From contig JANRIL010000046.1 in the NCBI GenBank assembly GCA_033764955.1, forward strand, positions 24,486 to 88,485: 64,000 bases of DNA, given 5' to 3'. The position numbers were made by a program, and so were the translations under genes. Source of the stretch: Cyanobacteriota bacterium. GTDB lineage: Bacteria; Cyanobacteriota; Cyanobacteriia; Thermostichales; Thermostichaceae. Shown here one piece after another: positions 23,401 to 46,621 of this stretch (positions are counted from its first letter, which is position 1; every line of letters begins with the position of its first letter). A model generated the notes under the pieces. The model saw only the letters and a program-made list of their open reading frames with translations. It made no database searches and had not been told where the DNA came from.

Positions 23401-24228
23401 ATGAAAATTGCCGTCATTTTAGGATCGAATAGCGATGTCCCGGCTGGGGCATGGACACGCCAAGAGATCCCAACGGACTATGGCCTGGTTCCCCTCTGGC
23501 AGAGCCCTTCCTCTGCCGATCCCCAGCATCCTCAATTGGCCTTGCTGCTGCGTCACGGTGAACAGCACGAATTGCTGCCGCATCTGGTGAATTTTCGGGG
23601 CAACTTCTGGGCGCTCAAACATTGGGGCTGTCAGGCTATTGTCAGTTTTAGCGTGATGGGGGTCTTACAAGCCGGGATCCCGTTGACTCGACCTATCCTA
23701 TTTGATGACATTTTCTTTCCCAGCAACCAACTTCCCGATGGCTCCGCCTGCACCCTCTTTGATCAGCCTGCCCAAGCCGGGCGGGGTCATTTTTTGGTCG
23801 AACACCCCTGTTCCCCCACTCTGCGCGCCCATTTGCGGCGACTTTTGCCCCATCCTATCGAGGGCGGGATTTATGGGCATGTTTTTGGCCCACGCTTTTC
23901 CACCCGCTCTGAACTGACTTACCTGCAAAAGCTGGGGATCACCGCTATTAGCCAAACCTCTGGTCCAGAATTCGTCCTAGCCGGAGAATTAGGGATCCCC
24001 TACGCTTTAGTGGGATTTGGTGTTGATTATGCTGATCCGGATCCCGGACGACGCAGCTCCCTAGCCGATCTCAATCAGAATCTCCGCCAATGGTCTCTCA
24101 CCCTTCCCCAGATTGTACAAGCCCTGCTCACCTATGACTGGCCGGCTCCCCTGCCCTTTGATCAGGGATATTTTTATCACATTGAGCACGATTTACCAAG
24201 GCCAGCTTCCATAGCCCAAAACCCCTAA
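23401..24228 (+). CDS. MTAP/PNP-family nucleoside phosphorylase
   Basis: LLRHG..H...PH.VN, GPRFST..E and LAGELGIPY motifs; ATG 23401 after GGAG. Confidence 0.8.
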   Translation: MKIAVILGSNSDVPAGAWTRQEIPTDYGLVPLWQSPSSADPQHPQLALLLRHGEQHELLPHLVNFRGNFWALKHWGCQAIVSFSVMGVLQAGIPLTRPILFDDIFFPSNQLPDGSACTLFDQPAQAGRGHFLVEHPCSPTLRAHLRRLLPHPIEGGIYGHVFGPRFSTRSELTYLQKLGITAISQTSGPEFVLAGELGIPYALVGFGVDYADPDPGRRSSLADLNQNLRQWSLTLPQIVQALLTYDWPAPLPFDQGYFYHIEHDLPRPASIAQNP

Positions 24229-24621
24229 TCAAAGTCCTCTTTGATCTGGGTTTCCGGCTGCCTGTGGAGCAGGTGAGTGAGGTGTATGGCGAGTATATCG
24301 ACACGACGGATCCGGGGGTGTCACTGCCGGACAATATCGCTGACCGAGCGCCAGGTGCAGGAGCAGGGGCTGGCGGTGGAGAGCCTCAAGTCGGGGGGGA
24401 TTTTGCCCGCTACCAAGACCCAGGCTCAGGCAAGGAGACGCTGATCTGATTGGAGGCTGATCAGGGTTTTGACGGGATCCCTGGGCCTAGCAGGCCAAAG
24501 TAGCGCTCAGAGATGATGCGGCAGATCTTGCGGCGATTGGATCCCGTGGAGGCGGCGTGGGTGCGACAGGAGATGGCGGCGATCGATTCAGAGAATTAGG
24601 GAGCGACGAGCACGGGAGGGG

Positions 24622-25038
24622 ATGCGGGTGGATCCAGACCAGGATTGGATCGAATTGGTGGAGCGAGAGCGCATCAACTTGGCGGATGTGGTGGCGTGGA
24701 CACGAATGGCAGATGGATCGTTGGTGTGGCTAGAACGGGGGAATCAGGATGCTGGGTTGCGGCACATTATCAGCCGACATGAACGAGACTTTGCTGAATT
24801 TGGGATCCCGGCTGGAGAGTTGTCAGAGTTTTTGATAGAGATGGTGCGAAACGGTGAGCCGGTGATGATGCAGGGGACTCGGCAAGTTTATCGAGTTTTC
24901 TATCGTGGCCAAGATTGGCATGTGGCCGTGACGGTCGGCGATAATGGGTTCATCGTGGGAGCCAATCCCGTAGGTCAACGCAAACTCAGACAGTTGTTGA
25001 GGAAGCAAAATGCCCCAACTCGTCCGACTACAAGCTGA
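24622..25038 (+). CDS. Putative MuF C-terminal RNase toxin domain (BECR/EndoU-like)
   Basis: WLERG...AGLRHII.RH and VG.NGFIVGANP motifs; in frame with the MuF linker upstream. Confidence 0.6.
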   Translation: MRVDPDQDWIELVERERINLADVVAWTRMADGSLVWLERGNQDAGLRHIISRHERDFAEFGIPAGELSEFLIEMVRNGEPVMMQGTRQVYRVFYRGQDWHVAVTVGDNGFIVGANPVGQRKLRQLLRKQNAPTRPTTS

Positions 25039-25336
25039 TTACTTTATTGAACCCATCTTTTTGGGTGCGGAAGATTTTGACGACACTGATTATGTTAACG
25101 CTTCTGATTTGCCCCTCAGCCCAGGGCTAACTGAGGCTATTGATGCTTGGCAGCAAGCCCTTGATATCACTTTTGATCATCAATTTGGCCGCAACAGCGG
25201 CTTCAAAACCGATGAGGAGCGGGTAGCTTTCCACACCCGTGGCCTGGATCTAGCTCGTCGCCTGCAATCAGAGCTGGGATCCGAGTACGAGGTCTACTAC
25301 GAGCGAGAGCCGGTGTTTGCCCAGGCTAGCTCGTAA
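25010..25336 (+). CDS. Putative immunity protein
   Basis: Small acidic ORF overlapping the toxin 3' end; LPLS..L...I.AW and G..LA.RLQ.ELG..Y.V.Y motifs. Confidence 0.55.
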   Translation: MPQLVRLQADYFIEPIFLGAEDFDDTDYVNASDLPLSPGLTEAIDAWQQALDITFDHQFGRNSGFKTDEERVAFHTRGLDLARRLQSELGSEYEVYYEREPVFAQASS

Positions 25337-25775
25337 ATGGTCACGCTCATCACCACTGTCACTGACACCCCCCTCCGCCAACTTTTTTGACCGGATCGAC
25401 AATACCCTACGCAACCCCCAGCCCCTCTATAAGGCCTGGGCTAACCACCTCGAATCCCGCGTCGTCACCGCCTTCAAACAAGAAACCTCTCCCGCAGGCC
25501 AAGCATGGCCGGAACTCAAGCCTGTTACTATCCGCCGCAAAAGCCGTAACTCTCGCAGCATCAACAAAAAGCTGCGCGATACTGGCACTCTCTACGACTC
25601 GATAGTCGCTCGTGCCTTACCTGATGGCGCGGTAATCGGCACCAATCAGCGAGTGGGATCCTACAGCCTAGGAGCCATCCACCAATACGGCGCACCCAGA
25701 CGGAGGATCCCACCACGTCCGTTTCTGCCTGTGGACACTCAAAGCAACTTACTACCCAGGAGGTTGACGAGATAA
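25337..25775 (+). pseudogene. Phage virion morphogenesis protein (Mu gpG-like), frameshifted
   Basis: F..E.SP.G..W..LK..T, L.DTG.L..SI and AIHQYG....IP.RPFL motifs. Frameshift in the T6 run at 25383-25388. Confidence 0.75.
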
Positions 25776-26029
25776 TCCGATTGACTTAGGAATAGCTAAA
25801 TTTGTAGGCCAATGTATACACCTATCAAAACTCTAGATAGATCCCTGGGATCCCTAGAGGTAATGCTGCCGAACTCAGCAGGATGGCTTGTTGAGAATCA
25901 AGGAAGCCTACATTATTTCACCTGAATTTTACCTGATCGATTCGCAACACGGTTTGGTAATACGCTATGGTTGCTTCGATGCAGACCTGCACCGTCCCTC
26001 ACCCCTCTCCCTATCTCTCTGAATAGCCC

Positions 26030-28585
26030 CTAGCGGTTAAGCAGTTGACCGCGGGTTACCCCCAGTTGCCGGTGCAGGTGAAATTCTCGCCACAGTTCCC
26101 CGCCCGAAATCTCTCCCTGCAGCAGTTGTTGGTAACGGGACACCAATTGCTTGACCAGCCCAGCTGATTCATTGAGAAATTCCACCCGAAAATGTTGCAC
26201 CCCCAGGCGAATTAGTCGCTGGACAAACTCGGCAGCGGTTTGGGCTTGTCCGTTAAAAACCGTGTTGCGACAGCCCGCATCGGCTTTCAGAGGATGCAGG
26301 GATCCCACCCGATCCCGCAGGGCGACTTGCTGGCTTTCGCAGGGACGACCGCAGTTGGTGTGATCGGTGCCGTTGGAGAGAAAAGCACAAAAGACACAAT
26401 GCTCCATATGAAACATCGGCATGTGTTGATGGATGGTAACTTCGTACCACTCCGGTGGACTGAGGGTGAGCAGATCCTGCAACTGTTGAAAACTGAGATC
26501 ATAGGAAGCGGTCAACCGCTGCACCCCGTAGTGTTGGCGCAGGTAGTCGGCGGTGAGGGGATTGGCAACGTTGAAGGAAAAGTCAGCCACGCAGGGATCC
26601 GTCAAGGCCCAGGCTAGGTGATCGTAGTTGCGGATCAAATACCCCGCTGCACCCGCCCGCCGCACTGTGTTGAGGATGCCCTCTTCTCCTGGTTTGCTGA
26701 TGCGAGGGGGAACCGCCCAAAACGGCACGGCGGATCCCCTCAGCCGTTCCACCGCCTGCCGATAGAGGCGCAGATCTTCAAATTCGCCATAGATTAAGGG
26801 GATCCCGCTTTGGCAGGCGGCCTCTAGCTGTTCTAGGTTCCGCACCAATACCCGCAGTTGGGGGAGGGTAGGGGATCCCGTTGGGGAGGGTGGGGGCAGC
26901 AAATCGTGGAAGCTAACGGAAGGGGAGAGTTGCCACGTTGGGGGAGCTTGCCGGAGTGCCTGCAACTGCTCCACCCCCTGCCGCCGCAGATGATTCAGTT
27001 GTTTGAGGGGCAGGATCACCGCCCCCACGAGGTGATTATGTAGCGCCGCTAGGTAAAAGGGGGTATGGCCCAACCGCCCCAGTTGCTCAACTAGGCGTTC
27101 TGGAGTCAGCGGCTGACTTTCAGCCTCCAGCAAGGGAATCTCTGACCACAGCTCGATCTGATGCCCCCGTTCATCCTGCATCGTTAGGCGCAAGGGTTGC
27201 CCCGCCTGCCCATACACATGCATCACCAGGGGACGTTGATAACGGGGCTGTTCTCCAGCAAAGCTCTGTCGGGCTTGTTTTTCCCATTCCGGATCGCTGG
27301 TTTTCCAAACCCGATCCCCAACGCGGATCTGGCGACTATCCCAGTCATGCCGACTCAGACAAAAAGCCGTTCGGGATCCCTGCGGCTGCACCTTGCCGAT
27401 GCGTCCACCTGGTTCCGGTTGATCCGGTTGCCCCTGATCAAAAACCACCCCATCCCCCACCTTGAGGGGAGGGGATCCCGCCAGACTGATCCATTCCCCC
27501 GCGATCTGAGCGACCTGACCCAGATAGACCCCCCGTTTTTTACCGAAGCGAGCATGAACCAACTGGGGATGGTTGACCCCCTTCAGCCAACCCGTCGATA
27601 GACCCCGCGAAAAACTCATTTCTAGGGAGTATTGCTGTTCAGGGGGGATGGTCAAGGGAGAGACCAGGGGATCCCCAACCGCATGCATCTCCTGAAGGAA
27701 GGCTGGCTCCAGGCGATCGAGGGCTTGTCGATAGACCTGCGTTACACTAGCCACATATTCTGGACTTTTCAGCCGCCCCTCGATCTTCAGGCTGGCCACA
27801 CCCGCCCGCAACAAGTCTGGTAAGAGAGAAATGCCCGCTAAATCTTGGGGGCTTAACAAATAGCGGCGATCCCCCAAATCGACCATCTGCCCATCGGCTA
27901 TCAAGTCATAGGGCATCCGGCAGGCTTGGGCACATTCTCCCCGATTGGCGGAGCGCCCCCCTAGTGACTCACTGGTTAAGCACTGCCCCGAATAAGCTAC
28001 GCAGAGGGCACCATGCACAAACACCTCTAGGGGCAGATCGGATCCCGCCAAGCGAATCCGGTTGATTTCGGGGAGCGAACACTCCCGCGCCAGCACGACC
28101 ACCTGGCAACCCAGCTTTTGAGCAAACGCAACGCCAGCGCCACTGGTGATGGTCATTTGGGTAGAGGCATGGATCGGGAAATCGGGGGAAAGATGGCGAA
28201 TCAATCGGCAAATCCCCACATCCTGAACAATCACAGCATCCACCCCCGCCGCCATCACCTGCCGCAGATAGGTTTCTGCCTCCGCTAGCTCTTGAGGAAA
28301 CACCAGCGTATTGAAGGTGACATAGCCCTTTACCCCCCGCCGATGCAGATAGCTCATCACCTGCGGGAGATCCGCCTCGCGGAAGTTCTCCGCCCGCATC
28401 CGCGCATTGAACCGCTCCAACCCAAAGTAGATGGCATCCGCGCCATTCTCCACTGCCGCCCGCAAACACTCCCAATCCCCCGCCGGAGCCAGCAGTTCTG
28501 GCAAGCGCCACTCGCTAGCAGAGGCATCTGCCGGAGCCGAGGATAACACCGAGTCGAGGGATCCCATCAATACCGTGCCGCCCAT
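26030..28585 (-). CDS. U32 family peptidase-like protein (RlhA-type RNA hydroxylation)
   Basis: PELLAPAG, HGALCVAYSGQC, RSANRGECAQACR and LKIEGR motifs. Confidence 0.9.
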   Translation of the reverse strand: MGGTVLMGSLDSVLSSAPADASASEWRLPELLAPAGDWECLRAAVENGADAIYFGLERFNARMRAENFREADLPQVMSYLHRRGVKGYVTFNTLVFPQELAEAETYLRQVMAAGVDAVIVQDVGICRLIRHLSPDFPIHASTQMTITSGAGVAFAQKLGCQVVVLARECSLPEINRIRLAGSDLPLEVFVHGALCVAYSGQCLTSESLGGRSANRGECAQACRMPYDLIADGQMVDLGDRRYLLSPQDLAGISLLPDLLRAGVASLKIEGRLKSPEYVASVTQVYRQALDRLEPAFLQEMHAVGDPLVSPLTIPPEQQYSLEMSFSRGLSTGWLKGVNHPQLVHARFGKKRGVYLGQVAQIAGEWISLAGSPPLKVGDGVVFDQGQPDQPEPGGRIGKVQPQGSRTAFCLSRHDWDSRQIRVGDRVWKTSDPEWEKQARQSFAGEQPRYQRPLVMHVYGQAGQPLRLTMQDERGHQIELWSEIPLLEAESQPLTPERLVEQLGRLGHTPFYLAALHNHLVGAVILPLKQLNHLRRQGVEQLQALRQAPPTWQLSPSVSFHDLLPPPSPTGSPTLPQLRVLVRNLEQLEAACQSGIPLIYGEFEDLRLYRQAVERLRGSAVPFWAVPPRISKPGEEGILNTVRRAGAAGYLIRNYDHLAWALTDPCVADFSFNVANPLTADYLRQHYGVQRLTASYDLSFQQLQDLLTLSPPEWYEVTIHQHMPMFHMEHCVFCAFLSNGTDHTNCGRPCESQQVALRDRVGSLHPLKADAGCRNTVFNGQAQTAAEFVQRLIRLGVQHFRVEFLNESAGLVKQLVSRYQQLLQGEISGGELWREFHLHRQLGVTRGQLLNR

Positions 28586-28669
28586 TCAACAGCCTTGATC
28601 TTATCCTGCGGCTTGGGGATCCCCACTGAATGGGCAAGGCTCAGGGGAGGAAGGATAGAAAAAAAGGGC

Positions 28670-29626
28670 TTAGAAGGGGGAAGAAACCTTCGGTTTTTTG
28701 ACTTTCTGTTCCCGCAGCCGCCGCAACATTTTCTGGAAGTATTCCCCCAAATAGTCCTCCAAATGATTCATCGAGGCGGGATCTAAGCCAAAGATTTCGT
28801 AGACCTGGGTCATGTCGGCATCCATGGGTTCTTCCGCCGCTAACACCTCCACGAAGGCCAAGCGATCGGCGATATTCCAACTCCACTGGAAGAACTGAGC
28901 CACTTTGCGGGATCCCCGCAACAACCCTAGGGGCATGGTGCTGATCTTGGCCTTGCGATTGGACAGTTGTTCGCAGAGTTGGATAATCTCCCGTGGCTTC
29001 CAGGCTTTGGGACCGGCTAACGGAAATACCTGCTGGCGAGTTGCTTCTATCTGCAAGGACTGCACCGCAAAACGAGCGATATCTTGAGTATTCATGTAGG
29101 CGGTGGGCACCGATTGGTTGGTGATCCACACCAGTTGCTCCTCCAAAATCGGCAACGCATACTGACCGATCAACCCCTGCATAAACCCACAGAGACGGAA
29201 GATCGTATAGGGCATTTGTGCCTGCACTAGATACTTTTCAGTGTGGTGCTTAAAATTCATCAGGGGCACATTCGCATATTCTTTGTCGGCTCCCATGATC
29301 GAGAAAAACACATAGCGCTGGATCTGAGCCGCCCGCGCCGCATTGATCAAGGCCACCTTGCCATCCCAATCCACCTGCTTAGCACTCAGGCTATCGGTTG
29401 AACGGACGGTGGCACAGTCAATCAAGGCATCCATCCCGACTAAGGCATCGGGAAGCGTTTCCGGTCGGCAGAGGTTCCCCACCTTGAGATGGGATCCCCA
29501 CTCACTCAAAAAAGCTGCTTTAGCAGGATTTCGCACCAAACTCGTCACCTGATGCCCTTCCTCTAGGGCACGCCGCACAACCTGCCGCCCTAATGTTCCC
29601 GTTGCTCCCACCACCAATACGTTCAT
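28670..29626 (-). CDS. ycf39: Ycf39-like NAD(P)-binding atypical SDR
   Basis: LVVGATGTLGRQVVRRAL, VDWDGKVALI, AYMNTQD and WNIADRLAF motifs. Confidence 0.85.
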   Translation of the reverse strand: MNVLVVGATGTLGRQVVRRALEEGHQVTSLVRNPAKAAFLSEWGSHLKVGNLCRPETLPDALVGMDALIDCATVRSTDSLSAKQVDWDGKVALINAARAAQIQRYVFFSIMGADKEYANVPLMNFKHHTEKYLVQAQMPYTIFRLCGFMQGLIGQYALPILEEQLVWITNQSVPTAYMNTQDIARFAVQSLQIEATRQQVFPLAGPKAWKPREIIQLCEQLSNRKAKISTMPLGLLRGSRKVAQFFQWSWNIADRLAFVEVLAAEEPMDADMTQVYEIFGLDPASMNHLEDYLGEYFQKMLRRLREQKVKKPKVSSPF

Positions 29627-29812
29627 AAAATTATTATTTCTTAACCTTCGCCTCAGTTTATCAGACTTGGTTGGCGATGGAGGGGGTTGAAACGGGGATC
29701 CCTGGCATTGATCCTTGAGAAAACAGTCGGAAAAGGCCAAATTCCCGTTACATGCTTAATGCAACTTAATGTGACACTTAACATTGGGGCACTGTCAGGG
29801 GAGACACCCCTA

Positions 29813-30712
29813 TCAGGAGACAGGCACTCCCATCGGCTGTTCAGGATCCGGTGTGGTAATCAAACCCGTCAAGGGAGAGCTGGCGCTGGCGATGGGTTTG
29901 AGGGGGATGCGCCCCGCTAGATAAGCAAGCCGTCCGGCCTGGGTGGCCATACCCATCGCCTCCGCCATGACCGCCGGAAGCTGTGCCTGGGCGATGGCGG
30001 TATTGATCAGCAGGGCATCGGCTCCCAGCTCCATCGCTTGAGCCGCCTCGGAGGGAACGGCAATGCCCGCATCCACCACCACAGGAACGCTGGCCTGCTC
30101 CACAATAATGCGGATGGCATCAGCGGATTTGAGTCCTTGACCAGAGCCAATCGGGGATCCGAGGGGCATCACCGTCGCACAGCCGATCTCCTGCAAGCGC
30201 CATGCCAACTGCGGATCGGCATTGATATAGGGCAGAACGGCAAATCCTTCCGCCACCAGTTGTTGGGCGGCCTCAAAAGTACCAATCGGATCGGGCAACA
30301 GATAACGCGGATCCCGAATCACCTCCAGCTTGACAAAGTGATTGTCCGTTTGTCCCAGCACCTGCTGAGCCATTTCTCGCCCCAAACGAGCCACCCGTAC
30401 CGCCTCTTCCGCCGTCTGACACCCCGCCGTATTGGGCAATAACCAATAACGCTGCCAATCGAGAGCCTCCAACAAACCCACATGGCCTGCTGATTGCATC
30501 TGGATCCGCCGAATCGCCACCGTCACCATTTCGCACCCACTGGCGGCGAGGGCAGCTTGCATATCAGCCAGATTGCCATATTTACCAGTTCCCACCATCA
30601 GGCGAGATCGAAACGTTTTGCCCGCAATCACCAGCGGCTTGGGATCCGTGAGGGGGGGTGCGGATGCTGTTGTGGTCTCAGCCTCAGGAACGCCCACCTT
30701 ATTCCCCACCAT
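29813..30712 (-). CDS. thiG: Thiazole synthase
   Basis: [22 protein letters not shown] and [12 protein letters not shown] motifs. Start may be GTG 30697. Confidence 0.95.
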
Positions 30713-30803
30713 TCACCACTTTCAAAATGCCATAGCCCAAGATCAGTCCGGCCAGGGTCAAGCCTATACACAAGCCAGCAATCGTAAAAATCTCTCCAGC
30801 CAT
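30699..30803 (-). CDS. petM: Cytochrome b6f subunit 7 (not in ORF track)
   Basis: [34 protein letters not shown], 34 aa with a single TM segment; GAGGAG RBS. Confidence 0.8.
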
Positions 30804-30942
30804 CGGGGGCTACTCCTCGTTTGGGGATAGGGTTATTCTTTCCTTAGAATAAACCAATTGGGATGCTTTCCCCTGAATCTACTGCCCTCCGCAACCCTAT
30901 GGCACACTGAAGGGTAGACTCCTCAATCCAAGACTCTCAACT

Positions 30943-31215
30943 ATGCCCAAGCCCCCTCCCCCTCCTCGTAAACTGGAAGATCAATTTGTCGAAAACGTCT
31001 CCCGCTATCCCTTCTATTTTGTGACGGTTTTGTTGGGAGGTATTTGGGTGGGCATTAAGCCCTTCGTGGATCTCTATCGCAAAAGCCCTCTCTCGGCGGT
31101 GGCGGTGGGGTTAGGCTTGAGCCTTTTCATGCTATTTATCCACTTCACGCTGCGGGGCATGGCGGGGGATAGTTTTTTCCCGGAGTGGATTTTGAATCGG
31201 ATCCCCCAGAGTTAA
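30943..31215 (+). CDS. DUF751 / Ycf33-like membrane protein
   Basis: F.ENVSRYP.YF and FTLRGM.G motifs. Confidence 0.75.
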   Translation: MPKPPPPPRKLEDQFVENVSRYPFYFVTVLLGGIWVGIKPFVDLYRKSPLSAVAVGLGLSLFMLFIHFTLRGMAGDSFFPEWILNRIPQS

Positions 31216-31369
31216 GCGGGAGTTGCTAACCCATCAACGGAACCAGCGAGTTTGGTTGAAGCCGAGCTGCCTTTGCCCTTAAGCTAGATCCGATAGGATA
31301 CCGTTGTCCCCCGTTGCCATAGTTACCACAAACCCGATCCCGTGCTGTTACTCAAGGAAAAAATAGGTT

Positions 31370-31510
31370 ATGGATATCGATTTTCGTCCGGTCATTGTTT
31401 TAGGCCCGATTATTTTGGTAGTTGGCTGGGCGGCTTTTAACATTGCCAAAGCAGCCATCAAGGGAGAAGCCAAACTCTTCGGAGAGAAAGGCAATAACCC
31501 TTTTGCTTAA
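31370..31510 (+). CDS. psbY: Photosystem II protein Y (not in ORF track)
   Basis: MDIDFRPVIVLGPIILVVGWAAFNIAKAAI..., 46 aa. Confidence 0.85.
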   Translation: MDIDFRPVIVLGPIILVVGWAAFNIAKAAIKGEAKLFGEKGNNPFA

Positions 31511-31630
31511 CCCAAAAAGCTAAGCATTTCTTGCTGGTTTTTTGTCTAGAATATTTACTCTGCTCAGATATAGTTTTCTGAGCAGCTTTTTAGTCTTTCC
31601 CCTTTGCTCTGCTATTGGGATAGTTCCCTC

Positions 31631-36649: not shown

Positions 36650-36811
36650 CTCCCTTCCCTGCAACAAACAGGGGTTCCCCTCCCTCCACAATTCTTGACG
36701 GGATCCCGTGCTTACCCTATGCTCAAGGCACCGCAGCATGGGGTTAGAAGGATTGTATTGTTCGGTGTGAGGATCACTGCATTTATGATCAGAGCTTGTT
36801 GGAACCAACGG

Positions 36812-37516
36812 ATGAGAAAAGCTAGTTTGCCCCTCCTGGCTGGATTGGCAGGGCTATCGGTGGCTATGGGTGGCTGTGGAGGCGATAGTGGCGGGGGATC
36901 CGCGCTTCCTCCCACAACGGCTCCGTTTGTGGATCCCTGCCAAGATATCAGTCCTTTTAGTGAACTATCCACCCAAGATTTGGAATCGATTCGCTTGACG
37001 GAGACCCGTCCTTCGGTCACGGGATCCCTGGATGCCAGCCTGAGTGGGCCAGTGGATTCGGCCTTTTCGTTTGATGACAATGGTAATGTGATCGAGGCGG
37101 ATCCCAACGATTTCTTCTGGTTTTTTGATACTTACATCATTACCCCAACAGATCCGGCGACGGAGTCGGTCACCATTGAGTTAAACAGTGATGACTTTGA
37201 CGCCCTCTTGGGCATTATTGATTTTCCCAACGGGGAAGTGATTGATATTGTCAACGACGACCGAGCGGAGGGCAATACCAATTCCTTGCTGACGATTCCG
37301 GTAGAACCAGGGGTGTGCTACGGCATCTTTGTCCAGAGTTTCTGGGCGGCAAATGCGACGGCGGATGCTCCCGGTAGCCCTGGACTGGGAGCCTACACGT
37401 TGGCGGTGACGGAGATCTTTAGCACCGTACCTCCCACTCCCCCTCCGCGCACACCCAAGCCTGCGGATCCCGATCGAGGGGGCAATGGCGAAGGCGGCGG
37501 CGGCGGTGGCATTTAA
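36812..37516 (+). CDS. Lipoprotein with a PPC-like beta-sandwich domain
   Basis: Lipobox MGGC; FD.Y, L.S.DFDA.L, NDD...TNS and G.YTL motifs. Confidence 0.65.
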   Translation: MRKASLPLLAGLAGLSVAMGGCGGDSGGGSALPPTTAPFVDPCQDISPFSELSTQDLESIRLTETRPSVTGSLDASLSGPVDSAFSFDDNGNVIEADPNDFFWFFDTYIITPTDPATESVTIELNSDDFDALLGIIDFPNGEVIDIVNDDRAEGNTNSLLTIPVEPGVCYGIFVQSFWAANATADAPGSPGLGAYTLAVTEIFSTVPPTPPPRTPKPADPDRGGNGEGGGGGGI

Positions 37517-37531
37517 TTTTCTCGCCTGATC

Positions 37532-40207
37532 ATGCCCTATTCCCTTTACTGCCAGGTGAATGGTCGGGAGCATCGCTCCACCTCTGCCGCTGGCACCACA
37601 TTGCTCTCCCTCTTGCGCCAGTGGGGCTATGCGGGGGTACATCGGGCTTGCGAGTCGGGGGATTGTGGGGCTTGTACGGTTTGGCTAGGGGGAGAGGCCA
37701 TCCATAGCTGCCTTTATCCGGCTGTGCGGCTGGCCGGACAGCCCATCACAACCATCGAGGGCTTGGGGAGCCCAGAGCAACTGCACCCCATGCAGCAGGC
37801 TTTTTTGGCGGGTCAGGGCTTTCAGTGTGGCTTTTGTACTCCCGGCATGATTATGACTGCCTGCCAGTGGTCAACGGGTCGGGATCCCGCTATCTCCGAT
37901 CCAGAAGTCGCCCTACGGGATAGTCTGCGGGGCAATCTCTGCCGCTGCACTGGCTATCAAGCGATTGTGGAAAGCATTCTTTCGCCGCCCACCCAGCCGG
38001 AGGGGGATCCCTCTCACCCCGTCGGAAAAAATATCCCCAAGCAGGATGGGGTCAAGTTGGTGACGGGTCAGCCCGCCTACACCGCCGATTGGCAGCCGGA
38101 GGGGTTGCTTCATCTAAAAGTGTTGCGTTCTCCCCATCCCCACGCCCGCCTTCGCCATATCAATACTGAGTCTGCCCGCTCCCTACCGGGGGTGCATGGC
38201 GTCTTTACCTATGCTGATGTGCCCCGTCACCCCTATACCACCGCCGGACATGCGGATCCGGTGCCGGATCCCTTGGATCACTATCTGCTGGATAACAAGG
38301 TGCGTTTTGTCGGGGATCGGGTGGCTGCCGTGGTGGCCGAATCCGTAGCCATCGCTGAGGCTGCCTGTCGGCTGATCGAAGTGGACTATGAACTCTTGCC
38401 CTTTGTCACCGAGCCGGAGGGGGCTTTTACCGGATCTGTGATTCACGATGAGCCGGACTCTCGCCAGATTGCGGATCCCGACCACAACATTTCTGGGCGC
38501 GTCACCTTTAGTCAGGGGGATATTAGTGAAGGCTTTGCTCAGGCTGATCTGATCGTCGAAAACACCTATCAGGTCCCGGCGGTTCAGCATAGCCACCTAG
38601 AACCCCATGTCAGCATCAGTTGGCTGGATGAACAGGGTCACCTGGTGATTCGCTCCAGTACACAAGTCCCCTTTCACGCCCAGCGCATCCTGGCGGGGAT
38701 CCTAGAGATGCCGATGGAGAAGATTCGCGTCTATAAACCCAACATGGGCGGTGGGTTTGGCAACAAACAGGAGATATTGACCGAAGATCTCTGTGCTTGG
38801 GCTACCCTCAAAACGGGTCGTCCGGTGCAGTGGGAACTCACTCGCCAGGAGGAATTTAGTGCCACCAACAGTCGCCATGCTATGACGATTCGCCTAAAAA
38901 CGGGGGTGAAAACGGATGGAACCCTACTGGCTCAAGAGATGGTGGTCTTGGGTAATACAGGAGCCTATGGCAATCATGGCCAGACAGTAGTTTTTCTGGC
39001 GGGCTATATCCCCTTAGGGCTGTATCGCTGTCCCCATCGCCAGTTTCGCGGCTATGCCGTCTATACCAACACCATGCCCGCTGGAGCTTTCCGTGGCTAC
39101 GGAGCCACTCAGGGCACCTTTGCTATGGAAGTCCAGATGGATGAAATTGCCCAGCGCTTGGGTCTGGATCCCCTGCAATTTCGGCAAAAGAATTTGATCC
39201 AACCAGGGGATCCCCTGACGATGGGGCGCAGCGATGACCACTTTAACCTGATTGGTAGCTATGGCCTAGCGGAATGTTTGGCACAGGTGAGTCAGGCTTT
39301 AGGATATCAACCGGGGCAGGCTCCCTTTGCCGAGGGATCCCGGTCACGCGGGGTGGGGTTTGCGGTATCGATGCAGGGAAGCGGGCTCTCCAAGATTCAT
39401 CAGGCTGGTGCGGAGTTGTCTCTGGAGGCGAACGGACGCTTTTTGTTGAAGTCGGGATCCGTGGATGTGGGAACGGGATCCGATACCACCCTGCGGCAGA
39501 TTGCGGCTCAGGTTTTGGGGGTGCGGGTAGGGGATATTGACCTGATCACAGCCGATACCCTTCTCACCCCTTTTGATGCCGGATCCTATGCCTCGGCCAC
39601 CCTCTACATTTCTGGACAAGCCGTCAAACAGGCGGCAGAGCAACTCAGTCAGCAGATTTTGGAGGCGGGCTGGCCATCAATAGCCGCGGCACGAGCCAGT
39701 GGACAAACCTGGCAAGCCCGTTCCGACTATCGGGCGGAAGAATCCACCCTCACCTTTGCCGTCCAAGGGGTAGAAGTCGAGGTGGATCGACAAACGGGAC
39801 AGGTGAAGCTGTTGCGCTGTGTGCAAGCTATCGATCTGGGGCAAGCCATCAATCCACGTATCTGTCAGGGACAGGCAACCGGAGGGATTGCCATGGGCAT
39901 TGGCTATGCCCTAACGGAAGCCTTGATCTGGGATGAGCAGGCTCAGATCCTCAACCCTGGCTTTCGCTTTTACCGGATCCCGACAGCCGCCGATATGCCC
40001 CCCATGCAGGTGTTTTTGATCGAAAAACCGGATCCCTACGGTCCGTTTGGAGCAAAAGGCGTGGGAGAGATTACTACCAATTGCACCGCTCCTGCCATTG
40101 CCAACGCGATTGCCCATGCCACTGGCGTGCGACTGCGCCAACTGCCCATCACCCCCCAGCGGGTTTGGCAGGCGTTAGTGACATCCCCTGTTTCAGGACT
40201 GAAATAA
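37532..40207 (+). CDS. Xanthine dehydrogenase / aldehyde oxidoreductase family, fused 2Fe-2S + molybdopterin subunit
   Basis: C..GDCGAC, QCGFCTPG, NLCRCTGY, GGGFG, AFRGYG and GAKGVGE motifs. Confidence 0.9.
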   Translation: MPYSLYCQVNGREHRSTSAAGTTLLSLLRQWGYAGVHRACESGDCGACTVWLGGEAIHSCLYPAVRLAGQPITTIEGLGSPEQLHPMQQAFLAGQGFQCGFCTPGMIMTACQWSTGRDPAISDPEVALRDSLRGNLCRCTGYQAIVESILSPPTQPEGDPSHPVGKNIPKQDGVKLVTGQPAYTADWQPEGLLHLKVLRSPHPHARLRHINTESARSLPGVHGVFTYADVPRHPYTTAGHADPVPDPLDHYLLDNKVRFVGDRVAAVVAESVAIAEAACRLIEVDYELLPFVTEPEGAFTGSVIHDEPDSRQIADPDHNISGRVTFSQGDISEGFAQADLIVENTYQVPAVQHSHLEPHVSISWLDEQGHLVIRSSTQVPFHAQRILAGILEMPMEKIRVYKPNMGGGFGNKQEILTEDLCAWATLKTGRPVQWELTRQEEFSATNSRHAMTIRLKTGVKTDGTLLAQEMVVLGNTGAYGNHGQTVVFLAGYIPLGLYRCPHRQFRGYAVYTNTMPAGAFRGYGATQGTFAMEVQMDEIAQRLGLDPLQFRQKNLIQPGDPLTMGRSDDHFNLIGSYGLAECLAQVSQALGYQPGQAPFAEGSRSRGVGFAVSMQGSGLSKIHQAGAELSLEANGRFLLKSGSVDVGTGSDTTLRQIAAQVLGVRVGDIDLITADTLLTPFDAGSYASATLYISGQAVKQAAEQLSQQILEAGWPSIAAARASGQTWQARSDYRAEESTLTFAVQGVEVEVDRQTGQVKLLRCVQAIDLGQAINPRICQGQATGGIAMGIGYALTEALIWDEQAQILNPGFRFYRIPTAADMPPMQVFLIEKPDPYGPFGAKGVGEITTNCTAPAIANAIAHATGVRLRQLPITPQRVWQALVTSPVSGLK

Positions 40208-41032
40208 CCGAGAATACAGACTTTGATGCTGTTGGCAATCGCGTTCATGGAGAGGAGCAAAAGCAGAGAAGGTCAGCCCACTATTGATCCGGCTGAAGGG
40301 ATCCAGACGATCGTCTGAAGTTAATAAATCGAAGCCTAAATCGAAACCTAATAAATCCATAGGATCCCCATCAGGGGAACGACTGGCTAGGATTTTTTCT
40401 GCCAGAGCATGGAGCGGGTGATGCAAGCGGATCACTATCGATTGACCTTGACTATGACCGAGGGGCACTAAACGAACTGCCGCAGACACCAAGCTCACTA
40501 CTTGACTAAACAGATAGGCATGCAGGGTAGAGGCGAGAGGGATCCCAACTTGACCGCCGATCCACCCAAACACCAAACAGTGATGCCACTCCTGCGGCTG
40601 TCCGGCTACTTCTTGTCTAGGACGGGGTGGTTCAAGTCTCCAGACCTTTTCTGCAAGCTGAAGCAAGCGATGCCCCAACTGCAAACTGGCTTGACGGGTT
40701 TCTTTAGGCCAACGATTGGCCGACAGCCAAGCCTGCCATTGCGCCAATCTATCGGCATTTCTCTGAGCAGCACAGTGGTGGGCAATCCCACACAAATTTC
40801 CCTCCAGACAACCCAAGCTAGACGACAACAACCCCTGGATATAGAGAAATACCTCTTCCTCAGAAGCTAGTTGTCCTGCTTGAACAGCCGTCTCCAAACC
40901 CCAAGAGTGGGAATAGCCCCCGATGGGCAAAGCCGAGTCAGTCAGTTGCAATAAAAGCAAGAACGGGTCAAGAAAGTGATCTCCCCCAGAATCAACGGGG
41001 ATGCCGGGGGGATGCGCTAGGAACATATTCAA
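40193..41032 (-). CDS. ureF: Urease accessory protein UreF
   Basis: DSALPIGGYSHSWGLE, AAVRLVPLG and C-terminal YSRLFQS. Confidence 0.9.
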   Translation of the reverse strand: MNMFLAHPPGIPVDSGGDHFLDPFLLLLQLTDSALPIGGYSHSWGLETAVQAGQLASEEEVFLYIQGLLSSSLGCLEGNLCGIAHHCAAQRNADRLAQWQAWLSANRWPKETRQASLQLGHRLLQLAEKVWRLEPPRPRQEVAGQPQEWHHCLVFGWIGGQVGIPLASTLHAYLFSQVVSLVSAAVRLVPLGHSQGQSIVIRLHHPLHALAEKILASRSPDGDPMDLLGFDLGFDLLTSDDRLDPFSRINSGLTFSAFAPLHERDCQQHQSLYSRLFQS

Positions 41033-41133
41033 AACATCATAGGGATGGATTGGGAATAGTTGAAGATTAGCTGGCCATATTAGCCGATTACATTCGCTCC
41101 CTTAGTCATGGGCTAATGATGACTAATCACAAG

Positions 41134-41709
41134 CTAATGGTGGGGACGAATTAGTCCATACCCGCCGTGGTTGCGTTCATAAATCACATTGATCTCTTGG
41201 GTGTCAATATTGCGAAAAACAAAGAAGTCGTGATCCACTAGTTCTAATTGATGCAAAGCCTCATCCACAGTCATTGGGGGCATAGCAAAGTATTTAGTGC
41301 GAATCACTTCGGGTGGTAGCTCAACTTCTCGCTCCAAATTGGGCTGAGGAGTTACCGGCTGCTGAGTAACCAAAATCGAGGTTTTAGGTGTCTGTTTGGC
41401 TCGATGAATTCCATTGCGCTCCTTAAATTTTCTTAATTGACGAGCAATTTTATCAGCCACACGGTCAATGCTAGCATACATATTTTCGCTGCTTTCTTCA
41501 GCTCGAATAACTGTTCCATTCGCGTATAAAGTGACCTCAGCCGATTGACAAGCACTAATTCGAGGGTTTCGTTCTACCGAAAGATTGATATCAACCTCAC
41601 TAGCTATTTGCGAAAAATGACTTACAGCACGCTCAATTTTTTCACTTACATAGTCGCGTATAGCATCCGTAATATCAACATTCTTCCCTTGAATCACTAG
41701 CTTAGTCAT
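41134..41709 (-). CDS. lrtA: Ribosome hibernation promoting factor (long HPF, LrtA)
   Basis: MYASID.V.DK..RQLRK.K and [12 protein letters not shown]...L.LVDHDF motifs. Confidence 0.93.
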
Positions 41710-42470
41710 AGGGTAGCTCCTATTCAGTTTAGTGCGTTAGTCTGTCAGGAAAATCTAAAGATATCTCCCTAGAATCTCCAGCCATTCTGGAAGGTAACGA
41801 GTGGCTCAGGGATCCCTAAACAGTAGGGATAATTGACCCAGAGATAATCCAACAAAAAATGGCTGTTATCTCCAAGAACCCAATAATCCACCTCCCATTT
41901 TAGGAGAATAGTTTTCTTTTTAATTTTCCTAATCCCAGGCTCACGAAATTAGTTCAGAACCCCAATTCACAACCTCAAGTTTCTCTGGATCGGCTAACAA
42001 TAGAGGGTTCAGTAAAATTGTGAGGCTTTTGAGATTAAGTCTAAGTTAACACTTAAATTGTGGCTCTCTCTGCTAAGTTTTATATAACTTCAACATTTTT
42101 TGGCTTGTTTTTAGATTGTTGGTCTGGAGTAATTAACTAGCAAAAGATGAGAGTTTTCACCGAAACCTTGGGTAAGTCTACAGCCTTCCCCACCCCAATC
42201 TTAGCCTAATTTTCCATGGATTGAACGCTAAGAAAGACCTAACACCCTCCCATGATTTGCAGTGAGTGCAGACGGACTCACCTGCTGGATCCCAGAAGGA
42301 TCGTAAAAAGATAACCTAAAGTAACAAATTAGAGACAAATCAAAAGACTGCTTAGCAAAGTAGCGAGATGCAAACTAGGTGTAAGGGTAGGATTGCCAAT
42401 CATTATGGCCAATAGATCGGAGCCTGACAAGCTGCCCCACGGCCTGGTCAATCACAACCCACCCAGGGAG

Positions 42471-42680
42471 CTAAAACTCGATGGGTTCCCCTGCGGGGGT
42501 GACCAACTGAATTTCACCGGAGCGGATTTTTTCGGCCACCATATCCAGAAGTGCCATTTCTTCGTCGCTGATCACGCCATCAGCATCAATAGCGGCTTCA
42601 ATTTCATCGTGTTCTTGAGCCGATAATTTGCCATCGGCTAGGGCGCGGTCTACTAAGTGCTTGACATGCCCAAAATCCAT
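42471..42680 (-). CDS. Small acidic hypothetical protein
   Basis: 69 aa with two ADG..S..E repeats; GGAGG RBS. Confidence 0.6.
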   Translation of the reverse strand: MDFGHVKHLVDRALADGKLSAQEHDEIEAAIDADGVISDEEMALLDMVAEKIRSGEIQLVTPAGEPIEF

Positions 42681-42806
42681 ACGCAGTCCTCCAGCCCTAA
42701 GATTCAGGTAACCCAATGATAGTGCATAGCCTGTAAAGGTGTGAGACAGGGGGCGGCCAGGAGGGTTCCGGTTGACTCTAAAATAAGGGTCTACCTATTA
42801 TGCGGA

Positions 42807-43421
42807 ATGGCTAGTGTGGTCAATAATTTAAGCCAAAATCAGGTCGATTTGTTAAGGGTAACCAAATGGTTGGTCGGAACCTATAGCAATCGTCAGCAAG
42901 CTCTGGATCAAGCCGTTTGGTTTATTCCAGTTACTTTGTGGTATGCAGAAGTTCCTCATCTGTTCGCAGAAGGGATAGGGTTCTTTACGGAGCAAGTGAA
43001 TCAGCATAAACCCCAAGACTATTATCGCAGTCGGGTCTTGCAGCTATTGGGAGATCCGTTGCGGCTAGAAAACTATAAATTACGGGATCAATCCATGTGG
43101 GCTGGTGCTTCCCAGGATCCTCAAAAACTCTCACAATTAAAGGCTAGTGATTGCGAATGGCTAGAGGGATGTACCATCAATCTGACCTATGTTCCGCAAG
43201 CCATAAGTGCCGAGTTAGCAGATCCATCTGATAGCTATTTCGGCAACATGCAGCCAGGTGGAGCCTGTTGTCTCTCCCCCCAAGATAGGGGATATATTGA
43301 AATTGAATTTCAGTTAACGGCTGATCATTTCATTACCCTTGACCGTGGATTTGACAAGGTTACTGGGCAGCAAACCTGGGGATCCAAAGCGGGGGCTTAT
43401 CATTATCGTAAGCAGCGTTGA
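42807..43421 (+). CDS. cpcT: CpcT/CpeT-family phycobiliprotein lyase
   Basis: G.YSN.QQA...P/VWF, YR.RVL and LDRGFD..TG.Q.WGS motifs. Confidence 0.8.
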   Translation: MASVVNNLSQNQVDLLRVTKWLVGTYSNRQQALDQAVWFIPVTLWYAEVPHLFAEGIGFFTEQVNQHKPQDYYRSRVLQLLGDPLRLENYKLRDQSMWAGASQDPQKLSQLKASDCEWLEGCTINLTYVPQAISAELADPSDSYFGNMQPGGACCLSPQDRGYIEIEFQLTADHFITLDRGFDKVTGQQTWGSKAGAYHYRKQR

Positions 43422-43431
43422 GGGATCCCTA

Positions 43432-44235
43432 ATGAAAACTCAAAAAGAATGCCTAGCTTTACACTTAGGAACTTGGTATGGAATATTTTCTGAGACTACC
43501 TTTTTCAATCAAATTCCTACAGAAGCTCGGCACAAACGTAGTCAAATTATTTTTGAACAGCCTCAGCCAGAAGTGATTAGCCAATCCAATGCTTATTTAC
43601 CAGTGGAAGCAGAAAATGAGGATCTATTTCCATCTGCGAACCCTTGGTATTACCAAAATTTCTCGGCGGGATTACGTTTTTTTGAGGAGGGATCCTTCTC
43701 GAATGGACGAGTGCAACTAGCTCCTTTTTCTGATTTTGCAACTGAGCAAGGATTCTTATTTGAGAACCAAAAGATGAGGGTCGTTCAGCAGTTTGATAGC
43801 CAAGGAAGGATAAGCGCTATCACAACCATTCAAGAGGCGCGGGGAGAAAACAGTCAAGCGTGGTTATCCCAACAGATCGCCAGTCTTGCCGAACCCGTAG
43901 ATTCATCCACAGCCTTATCTGAATTTTTTGCCGAATATGAAAACAGTCGCTGGCACGGATCCGCCACAACATTGACCGCCGACCACTACACACCTAGCCA
44001 GCAGTCTGTCACACTGATTATGGGCAGGGGCAACGATTTTTGTTGGCTAGCGGCTCCCCGATTATTGCTGCGTAGTCCGCAGATTTTGCCTATTCCCACC
44101 ACTCACCGCGATCGCCACTTCCAAATCGAACTGATCTGGCTACCCAATCCTGAATATTACTTGGGCTTAATTCGCAGATACGATCGACAGGGGGCTTGGC
44201 AAGACATCACCCTTATCCAGGCCGATCGCTGGTGA
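43432..44235 (+). CDS. DUF3598-like protein
   Basis: LG.W.G.F, FF..GSFS.G..Q and LIRRYD..G.W motifs. Confidence 0.7.
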   Translation: MKTQKECLALHLGTWYGIFSETTFFNQIPTEARHKRSQIIFEQPQPEVISQSNAYLPVEAENEDLFPSANPWYYQNFSAGLRFFEEGSFSNGRVQLAPFSDFATEQGFLFENQKMRVVQQFDSQGRISAITTIQEARGENSQAWLSQQIASLAEPVDSSTALSEFFAEYENSRWHGSATTLTADHYTPSQQSVTLIMGRGNDFCWLAAPRLLLRSPQILPIPTTHRDRHFQIELIWLPNPEYYLGLIRRYDRQGAWQDITLIQADRW

Positions 44236-44387
44236 TTGAGATAGAGAGCCTAACTCCCCTGTTGGTTCAGTCTTACTCTGAATTGTTGGGCAGCCAAATC
44301 GAGGACGATTGTTGATGGTGCCCTACCCCGAAAGAGGAAATTCAATTCGCCTTTTATCAGGGCAGTTGAAAACCACGGGTTCCGAGT

Positions 44388-45308
44388 TCAAGACTTTCTC
44401 GTACCGCTGAGTTCCACCGTTAGCCACTCGCGCAAATAACGATTGACCAAGGTGGGAGCTTCGTCCTGGGGGCAATGCCCTACCCCAGGTAGCTCGATAA
44501 ACGACTTCACGCTAGAAAATTGAGCTATTTGGCGTCCCTCTTCAATGGGTTCCCACGGATCCTCAGATCCCCAGAGTAGTAGAGCCGGACAGGACAGGCG
44601 GGGTAGTAGATCTTCCAAAAGCGGCCCTTGGGAATAGCGAATGAAGGCGAGAAAGACATCCGCCGCTCCCTCCTCTTGAGCCGGTTTGAGCAACAGTTGA
44701 ACCAATTCATCGGTGACCGTTTGAGGATCCCCATAGGCTTGCTCCAGAATCTGGCGGATTACCTTAGGTTGAGCCAACTGCCGAAAAAACCAGTGACCGA
44801 GCGGTTTCCAGGTTAGGAGGGTTTGGATGATGGGGGTGCTAAGACGGCGGTGCCATGCTAACTCGGCGCGTTTGCGTTCGTGTAGGAGGCGGAGTGAGGG
44901 ATTGAGGAGAGCCACCCCGACCACCCCATCGGGATCCGTGACGGCTGCCTGGAGAGCGACAATGCCGCCGATTGAGTTACCCGCCAGATAGGTGGGTTCT
45001 CCGATGATGTGATGACAAAAATCAATCACCTGTGCTGCCCAGGTTTCAAACGTGTAGGGGATCCCCTGCGGGTGAGAGGGATCGGCGGGGGTGGGCTTAG
45101 CGGATCCTCCAAAGCCCAGCAAATCGATGGCGAACACCCGATGGTTTTGCCCCAATACCGCCAGATTATGCCGCCAGTGATCGCTGCTGGCTCCAAATCC
45201 ATGAATTAACAAGAGAGGGGATCCCTGCTCCCCTGCCCGTTGGTAACGAACGGGAAATCCCTGCCACGACCAGATGTGGTGGGTAACCGCAATATGCTCA
45301 GCAATCAT
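44388..45308 (-). CDS. Alpha/beta fold hydrolase
   Basis: LIHGFGAS, GNSIGG and GHCPQDE motifs. Confidence 0.9.
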   Translation of the reverse strand: MIAEHIAVTHHIWSWQGFPVRYQRAGEQGSPLLLIHGFGASSDHWRHNLAVLGQNHRVFAIDLLGFGGSAKPTPADPSHPQGIPYTFETWAAQVIDFCHHIIGEPTYLAGNSIGGIVALQAAVTDPDGVVGVALLNPSLRLLHERKRAELAWHRRLSTPIIQTLLTWKPLGHWFFRQLAQPKVIRQILEQAYGDPQTVTDELVQLLLKPAQEEGAADVFLAFIRYSQGPLLEDLLPRLSCPALLLWGSEDPWEPIEEGRQIAQFSSVKSFIELPGVGHCPQDEAPTLVNRYLREWLTVELSGTRKS

Positions 45309-45525
45309 GCCATCTAGCCTTAAGCAGGAAAGATATTTCCAGAATGCCTGAAAACGCTCACAGATGCCCAGATCCACGCTTCCGTTTGACGGGGGGATAG
45401 AATATCTGCGCCAAAAGATTCAGACTACCTAGGGGACGGTAGGATGACATTCTTGAGGTTGATCATGATCCGACAGATTTTGGAGTGATTAGATCCGTAT
45501 AGATCAGGCTTGGCTGTGGCAGCAG

Positions 45526-46077
45526 ATGGCGGCGATCAACCAGAGAATTAGGGAGCAAAGACAGCCAACTCCCATGACATCCCAACAGCAAACATTAACC
45601 ACTGTGGAGGCAGAGATCCGTTACAAGACAGATCAAGAGCGTTGCTACGTGGTCGATGCAGATGGCAGCATTATGCTGGTTAAAGATGGCGACGCATCCT
45701 CGGCCACCTTTGCCGCCGAGGACTTGCCGTTGGTTCGTGGGAAAGCACTAACCCACAACCACCCCAATGGAGGCTCGCTCTCGCCAGAAGATATTGATTG
45801 CTTGCTAACGATCTGACCCAGTCAGATCAGGGCTGTATCGGGGGAATTTAAGTATTCCATGAAGCTGCCTGATAACCCGGTTGACGTATTCTTTCGTATT
45901 CGTTCTCGATTTGCTGTTGTTTCTAACGAAACTAAAAGACGTCTTAAAGAAGAAATTGATAGAGGTGATATCTCGGAAACGGTTGCTCAACAGGAGTTTC
46001 TACATCAAGTATGGACTCAGCTAGCTCAAGAGTTAGGATTGGACTATCAGCGGTTGGAGTGGGCAGATGAAGACTAG
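45526..46077 (+). pseudogene. MuF C-terminal JAB/MPN-like domain interrupted by one in-frame TGA
   Basis: THNHPNGGSLSPEDI motif. ORFs 45526-45816 and 45859-46077 share a frame, separated only by TGA 45814-45816. Confidence 0.65.
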
Positions 46078-46288
46078 GGATGGTGGTTTTGTCATCGACC
46101 GTTATCAGTTTTACTGGGAAACCCCATGCCGTGATTGTCGGCATTTTGTCTGGGATGGGGAATGTGCCGCCTTCCCAAATGGGATCCCTTTGGAGATTTG
46201 GGATGCCCGCAATGATCACCGTCAACCCTACCCAGGAGACCATGGGATCCAGTTTGAACCCATGCCTTTGCCCATCAAGACTCGCTAA
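46067..46288 (+). CDS. Small Cys/His phage-type protein, putative partner or immunity protein
   Basis: C..C.H.....C.AFP.GIP.EI.....H..P.PGD.GIQFEP motif; overlaps the upstream ORF end. Confidence 0.6.
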   Translation: MKTRDGGFVIDRYQFYWETPCRDCRHFVWDGECAAFPNGIPLEIWDARNDHRQPYPGDHGIQFEPMPLPIKTR

Positions 46289-46475
46289 TGGTCAAACTCG
46301 CCATCACCATAGCGAACCCTCGACTGAGGCAACTACTTGCCCGGATCGACACCACTTTCTACAACCGGAAGCCCCTCTACCAGGCTTGGGCAAACTACCT
46401 CGAATCTCGCGTCTTAACACCTTCAAACAAAAAAACTCTGTGAGAGGTCAGGTGTGGTCGGAACTCAAGCCCGCC
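46288..46475 (+). pseudogene. Truncated phage virion morphogenesis gene
   Basis: MVKLAITIANPRLRQLLARID...PLYQAWANYLESRV, homologous to the gene starting at 25337. Confidence 0.7.
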
Positions 46476-46621
46476 ACAGGAGCAGAAACCGGAACGGTTA
46501 AATAGTCCTGACTTTATGCTTGCCTTTGCTATTCCTTGTTGAGTTGGGTGCTGAATTGGGTTTAGATTGCGGTGGCGGCAATGCAAAAATAAAGAAAGCT
46601 AACATTCTTGCTTGAGGAATT

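Follow-up and report, generated by a model that had tools for sequence, protein, structure and literature searches.

The 64,000-nucleotide stretch analysed here (the window; positions 24,486 to 88,485 of contig JANRIL010000046.1, GenBank assembly GCA_033764955.1, from a cyanobacterium of the family Thermostichaceae) carries two short phage-derived loci, locus 1 at 24231-25810 and locus 2 at 45364-46490. Both are remnants of the same part of cyanobacterial Mu-like phages, in which a MuF gene with a toxin tail is followed by a small partner gene and by gpG. They came from separate phages and were reduced by internal deletions, and the other phage genes have been lost from the assembly. The payloads, i.e. 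the toxin tail and its partner, are better preserved than the flanks, strongly so at locus 1. Taken together, these features make it moderately probable that separate related Mu-like prophages were deleted down to the MuF tail, partner and gpG, and that this core survives by selection on the toxin-tail/immunity pair. The genome to which the window belongs (G000) is a 3.8-Mb assembly of 48 contigs that is 89% complete; its host genes, psbP among them, and the related loci indicate a cyanobacterium. All window features described below lie on the plus strand.

When locus 1 was compared with locus 2 by BLASTN, exactly two common segments were obtained, a left flank (71/93 nucleotides, 76% identity, E 3e-13) and a right flank (103/136 nucleotides, 76% identity, E 2e-22), and no similarity was detected between the middles. 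This confirmed the arrangement described in an earlier sequence-only reading of the window, and the E values ruled out that the flanks match by chance. The right flank is gpG, a virion morphogenesis (tail completion) gene (PF05069, E 4e-16; phrog_26). The left flank was identified, by sequence comparison and with a custom hidden Markov model (HMM) built from 10 MuFs of gpG-linked phage loci, as the C-terminal linker of cyanobacterial Mu-like MuF proteins. The 476-amino-acid MuF of loci L020 and L041 aligns over the entire open frame of a further remnant on contig C11 (31% identity), and the left flank therefore corresponds to the end of the MuF conserved region. A profile built from 12 gpG relatives retrieved 3 genome, 28 metagenome and 14 viral loci, and in those with enough flanking DNA the gene upstream of gpG is usually MuF. 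The best PF04233 match in G000, at C11, stayed under the cut-off (E 0.88) because the MuF domain is mostly deleted; the remnants match the custom MuF HMM, and the MuF homologues of loci L127 and L133 score above the PF04233 cut-off. The MuF and gpG assignments made from the letters of the window were thus upheld.

Locus 1 starts with a 63-bp fragment of a Mu-like portal gene (24231..24293), which a deletion has fused to the MuF remnant. This fragment is the top genome-wide match (23.5 bits, E 6e-5; next match 7.4 bits) of a portal-segment HMM whose segment was picked after the likeness had been spotted by eye. The MuF pseudogene (24316..24600; positions 159-251 of the custom HMM) retains the 3' third of the conserved region and the linker, and bears a frameshift near 24395, stops at 24447 and 24501, and an extra base near 24586 seen in the alignment. 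The former C-terminal tail of MuF is now an intact, lesion-free open reading frame (ORF) of 138 amino acids (24622..25038) that encodes a BECR-fold toxin-like protein. Its structural model (predicted local distance difference test score, pLDDT, 94) had a single Foldseek match at E<=0.001, chain 7M5F_C (E 4e-11, template modelling score, TM, 0.77), and its profile matched the CdiA of 7M5F with E 1e-47. Relatives of this toxin number 1110 at E<=0.001, and in several of the 38 longer ones scanned the domain ends MuF, Rhs, LXG, PAAR or haemagglutinin proteins. The intact 108-amino-acid ORF at 25010..25336 is a CdiI-like immunity gene (profile match to CdiI, 7M5F_A, E 3e-18). By these profile matches payload 1 is homologous to the solved CdiA-CT/CdiI (CT, C-terminal) toxin-immunity pair PDB 7M5F, in agreement with the toxin and immunity roles first proposed for it, and binding between toxin and partner is predicted from the same homology. 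The two ORFs are adjacent, overlapping and both free of lesions, like a two-gene type II toxin-antitoxin module. The nearly full-length gpG pseudogene (25337..25810; PF05069, phrog_26) carries frameshifts at 25385 and 25756 and stops at 25787 and 25793. The portal-MuF-gpG order preserved in fragments at locus 1 is found whole in related prophages. Among sequencing runs, no RNA run was listed as containing this genome, and one DNA run in which it had a small share yielded a single 212-bp contig identical to 24953-25164.

At locus 2, a likely MuF start of 22 codons followed by a stop (45364..45432) is joined by a deletion to the linker remnant (45464..45560; 76% DNA identity to locus 1). This start is the top genome-wide match of a MuF N-terminal HMM but a weak one (8.3 bits, E 3.5), and it is 62% identical over 16 amino acids to the MuF of L020. 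The linker contains a stop at 45486 and a frameshift near 45498. The next part, 45561..46077, was recognized by a sequence motif and by homology to L127 as a JAB-like MuF C-terminal domain with one stop, at 45814. It has the pattern HxH-x7-S-x2-D, which we take to be a JAB-type motif, matches RadC only at E 0.046, and is 33-44% identical to the tail of the L127 MuF. The following Cys/His partner gene (46067..46288, 73 amino acids, intact; phrog_33375, E 3e-8) is predicted to encode an immunity protein. It is 59% identical to the gene lying between MuF-JAB and gpG at L127 (G556:C24), where MuF with a JAB-like tail, Cys/His partner and gpG stand in locus 2 order. At L191 and L192, members of this phage-rich, unnamed family likewise come after a JAB-like domain; at further loci, toxin-like domains of other kinds precede them. 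The gpG of locus 2 is reduced to its 5' 40% (46288..46490; 62% identity to residues 1-64 of the C11 gpG), truncated and frameshifted at 46415.

A search of the whole genome revealed more than the two window copies, as the scattered set proposed earlier would imply: two further full remnants, C11:40068-41559 and C42:85610-89930, and a JAB-like fragment at C45:67275-67495. The four gpG matches in G000 all lie inside relics (the two window loci, C11 and C42). DNA identity among the copies is 76-83%, and three of them stop within ~15 bp of the gpG end. The C11 relic has a GNAT-like tail in one open frame and an intact gpG. The C42 relic has a frameshifted JAB-like tail, and its partner is replaced by a Sll1717-family ATPase gene and two genes with attC-like hairpins; it is flanked by an 81-bp duplication of the end of a host lipoprotein gene (75% identity). 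One linker is therefore combined with three different tails, namely BECR, JAB-like (weak family match) and GNAT-like (E 0.02). Two of these payloads are reproduced outside G000, by the MuF-GNAT-gpG loci L020/L041 and the MuF-JAB-partner-gpG locus L127. The sequence-only reading had also claimed that the structural phage parts are broken while the partner genes are intact. This stands for the window loci, where stops and frameshifts affect the MuF and gpG parts and a small open ORF lies directly 3' of each tail; it fails at C11, with its intact gpG and no separate partner, and at C42, where the partner is lost. This part of the C42 relic (C42:86444-89463; L002:7445-10470) encodes, besides the P-loop ATPase, a cupin-like and a SnoaL-like protein; two of three candidate attC-like hairpins fold as long stems, and no Rfam match was obtained in this relic. 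The C45 fragment adjoins a gene that by eye resembles an IscB/RRXRR endonuclease.

The copies did not arise from one another. Between copies, the ratio of nonsynonymous to synonymous substitution rates (dN/dS) is 0.10-0.17 for gpG at a synonymous divergence (dS) of 0.74-0.81, and 0.13-0.21 for the linker at a dS of 0.39-0.57. The flanks thus diverged under purifying selection, which indicates that each copy descends from its own sibling phage; on these values, the idea that a single cassette was duplicated within the host was rejected. In a midpoint-drawn tree of 30 rows the four relic gpGs, including that of locus 2, form one side of a branch (support 100/99). Judging from these substitution patterns, the relic gpGs and linkers separated while they were still functional in sibling phages, and their decay came later. 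One spacer of the host's clustered regularly interspaced short palindromic repeats (CRISPR), located at C11:28227-28259 in an array beside cas genes, matches the MuF remnant 12 kb away on the same contig at 29/33 nucleotides, and all four mismatches read as silent third positions. The other 37 of the 38 host spacers show <=60% identity to this remnant. From this match with silent third-position differences, we infer that another sibling phage infected the G000 lineage. The active phage postulated earlier is to that extent supported by the spacer; the parent prophage was sought and not found. Another spacer, at C11:28849, is identical over 35 nucleotides to a chromosomal parA/minD-like gene (C42:118457-118491), an apparent case of self-targeting.

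As for the rest of the phage, a panel of 18 head and late-region HMMs matched G000 only at MuF, gpG, the host HU gene and one Rho-N-like spot, and the same panel picked up genes for the portal, terminase, protease and capsid in prophages from other cyanobacteria. From the 29 gene families common to at least 3 of 9 related prophage regions, five match G000: MuF, gpG, the HU of the host, and two generic families whose matches lie at unrelated sites. MuF and gpG are therefore the sole virion or transposition genes found among these families, and the transposase, terminase, protease, capsid and tail families gave no match. Pfam searches of the assembly for portal, protease, terminase and Mu transposase were empty, and the Mu transposase family PF09299, which the related prophage contigs G556:C74 and G624:C204 do carry, was not found in G000. 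Near the relics, no portal, terminase or protease gene was found beyond the 63-bp portal fragment. Neither a full-length MuF nor the parent prophage was found in G000. The parent phage did not turn up in viral contigs (one gpG or one partner-1 sequence as query), in longer proteins (linker as query) or in annotated phages (C11 frame as query). None of 30 relatives gave a gpG match, and the gpG profile matched 0/22 same-family genomes. In the empty-site comparison, the hydrolase gene did not adjoin psbP in 21 relatives, and neither neighbour adjoined the phosphorylase gene in 6 relatives. The portal fragment of locus 1 and the likely MuF start of locus 2 point to internal deletions of longer phage DNA, and because these deletions join portal or MuF-start fragments to the linker, they argue for decay in place and not for precise cassette insertion.

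The distribution of lesions bears on why this region was left. At locus 1, the structural DNA has 8 lesions in 753 bp and the payload 0 in 736 bp (P=0.004). For the four relics pooled, the figures are 16 lesions in 2687 bp of structural DNA and 2 in 2608 bp of payload (P=0.0008), with the stop after the locus 2 MuF start left aside. A probable course of events is that sibling phages lysogenised the G000 lineage repeatedly, and that deletion of an immunity gene would have been lethal while its toxin tail could still be made. Alternatively, the immunity gene may shield the cell from MuF toxins that circulating sibling phages deliver. After MuF was broken at locus 1, the 138-amino-acid toxin had a start of its own, ahead of the immunity gene, and the pair would behave as a toxin-antitoxin module of two genes. 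The locus 2 toxin is broken, and the predicted immunity gene alone is left. gpG would hitchhike.

Several observations weigh against such selection on the pair. The lesion tests were post hoc; their counts take in the extra base seen in the alignment and leave aside large deletions and truncations, the partner lost at C42, and two frameshifts that compensate each other and were assigned to the open C11 tail. For the partner genes alone, 0 lesions in 549 bp compared with 12 in 2025 bp was not significant (P=0.056). The C11 relic lacks a separate partner gene and has an intact gpG, the C42 partner is lost and the C42 toxin frameshifted, and gpG is kept in 4/4 relics without clear benefit. No sigma-70-like promoter was found at 24100-26050. 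Since the assembly is 89% complete, the parent prophage could be missing from it, and the set searched held no genome of the same genus. Some of these points would suit neutral decay combined with detection bias, in which dying prophages left this region by chance or through deletion hot spots and the partners are intact as small targets. Every copy is broken somewhere, the partner-only test is in keeping with such decay, the intact C11 gpG has no obvious use, and muf genes in prophage remnants are already on record, with 3% in remnants according to the available text of PMC5576092. However, the same 1-1.5 kb is kept in 4/4 remnants while other conserved virion and transposition families are unmatched, the pattern recurs in another genome (G410, below) with another gpG clade, and the locus 1 contrast remains. 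Neutral decay is for these reasons rather unlikely, and trimming of prophages with selection on the payload is preferred.

Similar loci were sought in other cyanobacteria. Matches to the gpG profile occur in 23 of 400 other genomes of the class, and 13 gpG loci from 12 of those 23 genomes were examined. Other Mu-like head genes or MuF are present at nine of the 13, gpG alone at three (L122; L130, at a contig end; L134, among tail genes), and L127 has MuF and gpG among host-like genes near a contig end. The complete genome G410, from another family and with an unrelated gpG clade, has four dispersed loci of 81-98% DNA identity. They contain tandem units in which a MuF linker or toxin tail has been joined to the start of gpG; at L085, a second unit comes after a 429-amino-acid MuF-CdiA_C frame. 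The queries used detected neither portal, terminase, protease or capsid genes nor a Mu transposase in G410. At locus L087 of this genome, the end of a host gene is duplicated over 96 bp on the two sides of the unit (92% identity), and flanking direct repeats of host DNA were present at 2/9 loci tested, L087 and C42. In the genome G429, a phage-derived piece of ~514 bp (L122:8355-8868; C1 ~2382354-2382867) has an intact CRISPR repeat on either side, in the manner of a giant spacer. It contains a whole 77-amino-acid partner-like gene and the 5' half of gpG, and it is the only long spacing among the 124 in the stretch read, the other 123 being 70-78 bp. The G410 units with CdiA_C and DUF4258 tails (L085:4588-7907, L086:5900-7920, L087:5520-8270 and L135:3030-4099) stand in a host chromosome context, units similar to them were seen in G431 (L222 and L224), and one of the G410/G431 units abuts a CRISPR array.

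These borders raise the alternative that only short phage pieces ever entered the genomes, whether through recombination (illegitimate or of Campbell type) or through CRISPR acquisition of oversized pieces, and that the immunity-bearing ones were kept; in a variant, an intact gpG would interfere with sibling phage assembly. The host-gene-end duplications at C42 and L087, the piece between CRISPR repeats in G429 and the three G000 copies that end close to the end of gpG would fit. However, no flanking repeat was found at either window locus or at C11, the G000 relics lie outside all 3 detected CRISPR arrays, and the portal and MuF-start fragments show that longer pieces were once present. Moreover, variable DNA downstream of gpG among phages can mimic a sharp border. 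Capture of fragments is consequently quite unlikely.

Another alternative, put forward in the sequence-only reading, is that the host keeps a scattered library, and that sibling phages infecting it exchange payloads with the relics, recombining across the conserved MuF linker and gpG flanks. Variable payloads do lie between conserved arms in 4/4 copies, a sibling phage existed (88% identity to the C11 remnant over 33 nucleotides), G410 has tandem fused units with 81-98% DNA identity among its four loci, and cassette exchange is the accepted model for polymorphic toxins, as far as the consulted part of PMC3482391 goes. However, the G000 copies, 76-83% identical, show no homogenisation (dS 0.4-0.8), two payload toxins are broken, neither a parent prophage nor a Mu transposase was found, two of the four copies lack a separate partner, and the partner-only lesion test is as given above. 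A donor role would also benefit the phage, with no obvious benefit to the host. The library proposal is weakened by these results and is unlikely. The genome of the infecting phage was not found in the viral-contig searches. A wider scheme is conceivable but doubtful, namely that some cyanobacteria maintain a dispersed immunity archive drawn from the MuF toxin-tail/immunity/gpG region of Mu-like phages. Such an archive would arise as prophages are trimmed, and in one genus units shuffled in tandem and pieces captured as giant CRISPR spacers would add to it; it would protect against virion-delivered toxins and could feed payloads to sibling phages.

Cryptic prophage remnants can retain toxin-antitoxin pairs, and the G000 relics resemble them in having been deleted down to genes that resist loss or help the host. 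They differ in that one short module is kept from four sibling phages and in that the pair derives from the tail of a virion protein, whereas no dedicated toxin-antitoxin locus was its source. Among MuF toxins of temperate phages, a variable toxin-like tail is followed by a small ORF in 89.4% of muf toxin genes, which lie downstream of the portal gene, and 96% of chromosomal muf genes, near-whole, are in prophages or remnants (Jamet et al. 2017, PMC5576092, main text). That defining paper treats the role of MuF toxins as a hypothesis, and its main text has 0 occurrences of 'orphan', 'cyanobacteria' or 'JAB'. The G000 loci share with those systems the variable tail and, at the two window loci, the small downstream ORF, whereas their MuF domain is deleted and only tail, partner and gpG are left, at four dispersed sites. 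The pair 7M5F comes from Serratia marcescens BWH57, where CdiA-CT is a toxin of BECR fold and CdiI its immunity protein; the portion of PMC8616854 consulted assigns the BECR RNase fold, gives no substrate, and mentions CdiI relatives in cyanobacteria. Locus 1 shares with it the BECR-fold domain, the immunity family and the gene order. Delivery differs, being by CdiA in S. marcescens and formerly by MuF at locus 1, where toxin activity is predicted from sequence and model. Orphan cassettes of CDI (contact-dependent growth inhibition) and Rhs systems and acquired immunity clusters likewise have a toxin tail and immunity gene cut from the delivery domain, with homologous 5' sequence capable of exchange; in the parts of the sources at hand, they form arrays behind a complete toxin gene or clusters within a single element (PMC3482391, 10.1101/471110, PMC5361080), whereas those of G000 are single, dispersed and phage-derived. 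PADLOC gave no match for any relic toxin or partner. A literature search, with most subscription papers outside it, returned no description of dispersed MuF-tail/partner/gpG relics or of such a gene-sized spacer. MuF toxins with downstream ORFs and cassette exchange were thus already known, and the dispersed relics are a new variant.

If hosts repeatedly keep only the toxin-tail/immunity region, this would be natural evidence that virion-delivered toxins select on hosts. That this trimming is seen in two unrelated cyanobacterial lineages suggests that there is a general route by which tails of phage structural genes become chromosomal toxin-antitoxin-like modules and orphan immunity genes. The relics also supply small, directly testable pairs, one of them with a solved structural homologue.

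Relatives of the locus 1 partner are present in 20 of the 400 other class genomes. The toxin domain lies directly upstream at 17 of 24 loci (16 whole, one a fragment) and not at the remaining seven, and neither MuF nor gpG was found within ~1.5 kb at these 24 loci. At 11 of the 16 whole-toxin loci, toxin 1 is a short gene (111-174 amino acids from the first start, approximate) before the partner. One of these 11 is in G011, of the same family as G000. This stand-alone pair (L166:1495-2239; 63% and 60% identity for toxin and immunity protein) has the same start codon as locus 1 and no phage flanks, and it lies upstream of a carboxysome-shell-like gene.

Minor observations concern the surroundings of the relics and one further MuF gene. 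No flanking repeats were found at either window locus. A repeat at 25851-25911 was rejected as a cassette end, because it belongs, in truncated form, to a dispersed element of ~170 bp that has short inverted ends and for which BLAST found 14 other genome sites. A 20-codon scrap of the locus 1 immunity gene is located upstream of pyrG (C42:150340-150412). In the genome G619, a MuF gene (L124:5018-7711) is apparently interrupted, as judged by eye, by an intein-like insertion in its conserved cysteine motif.

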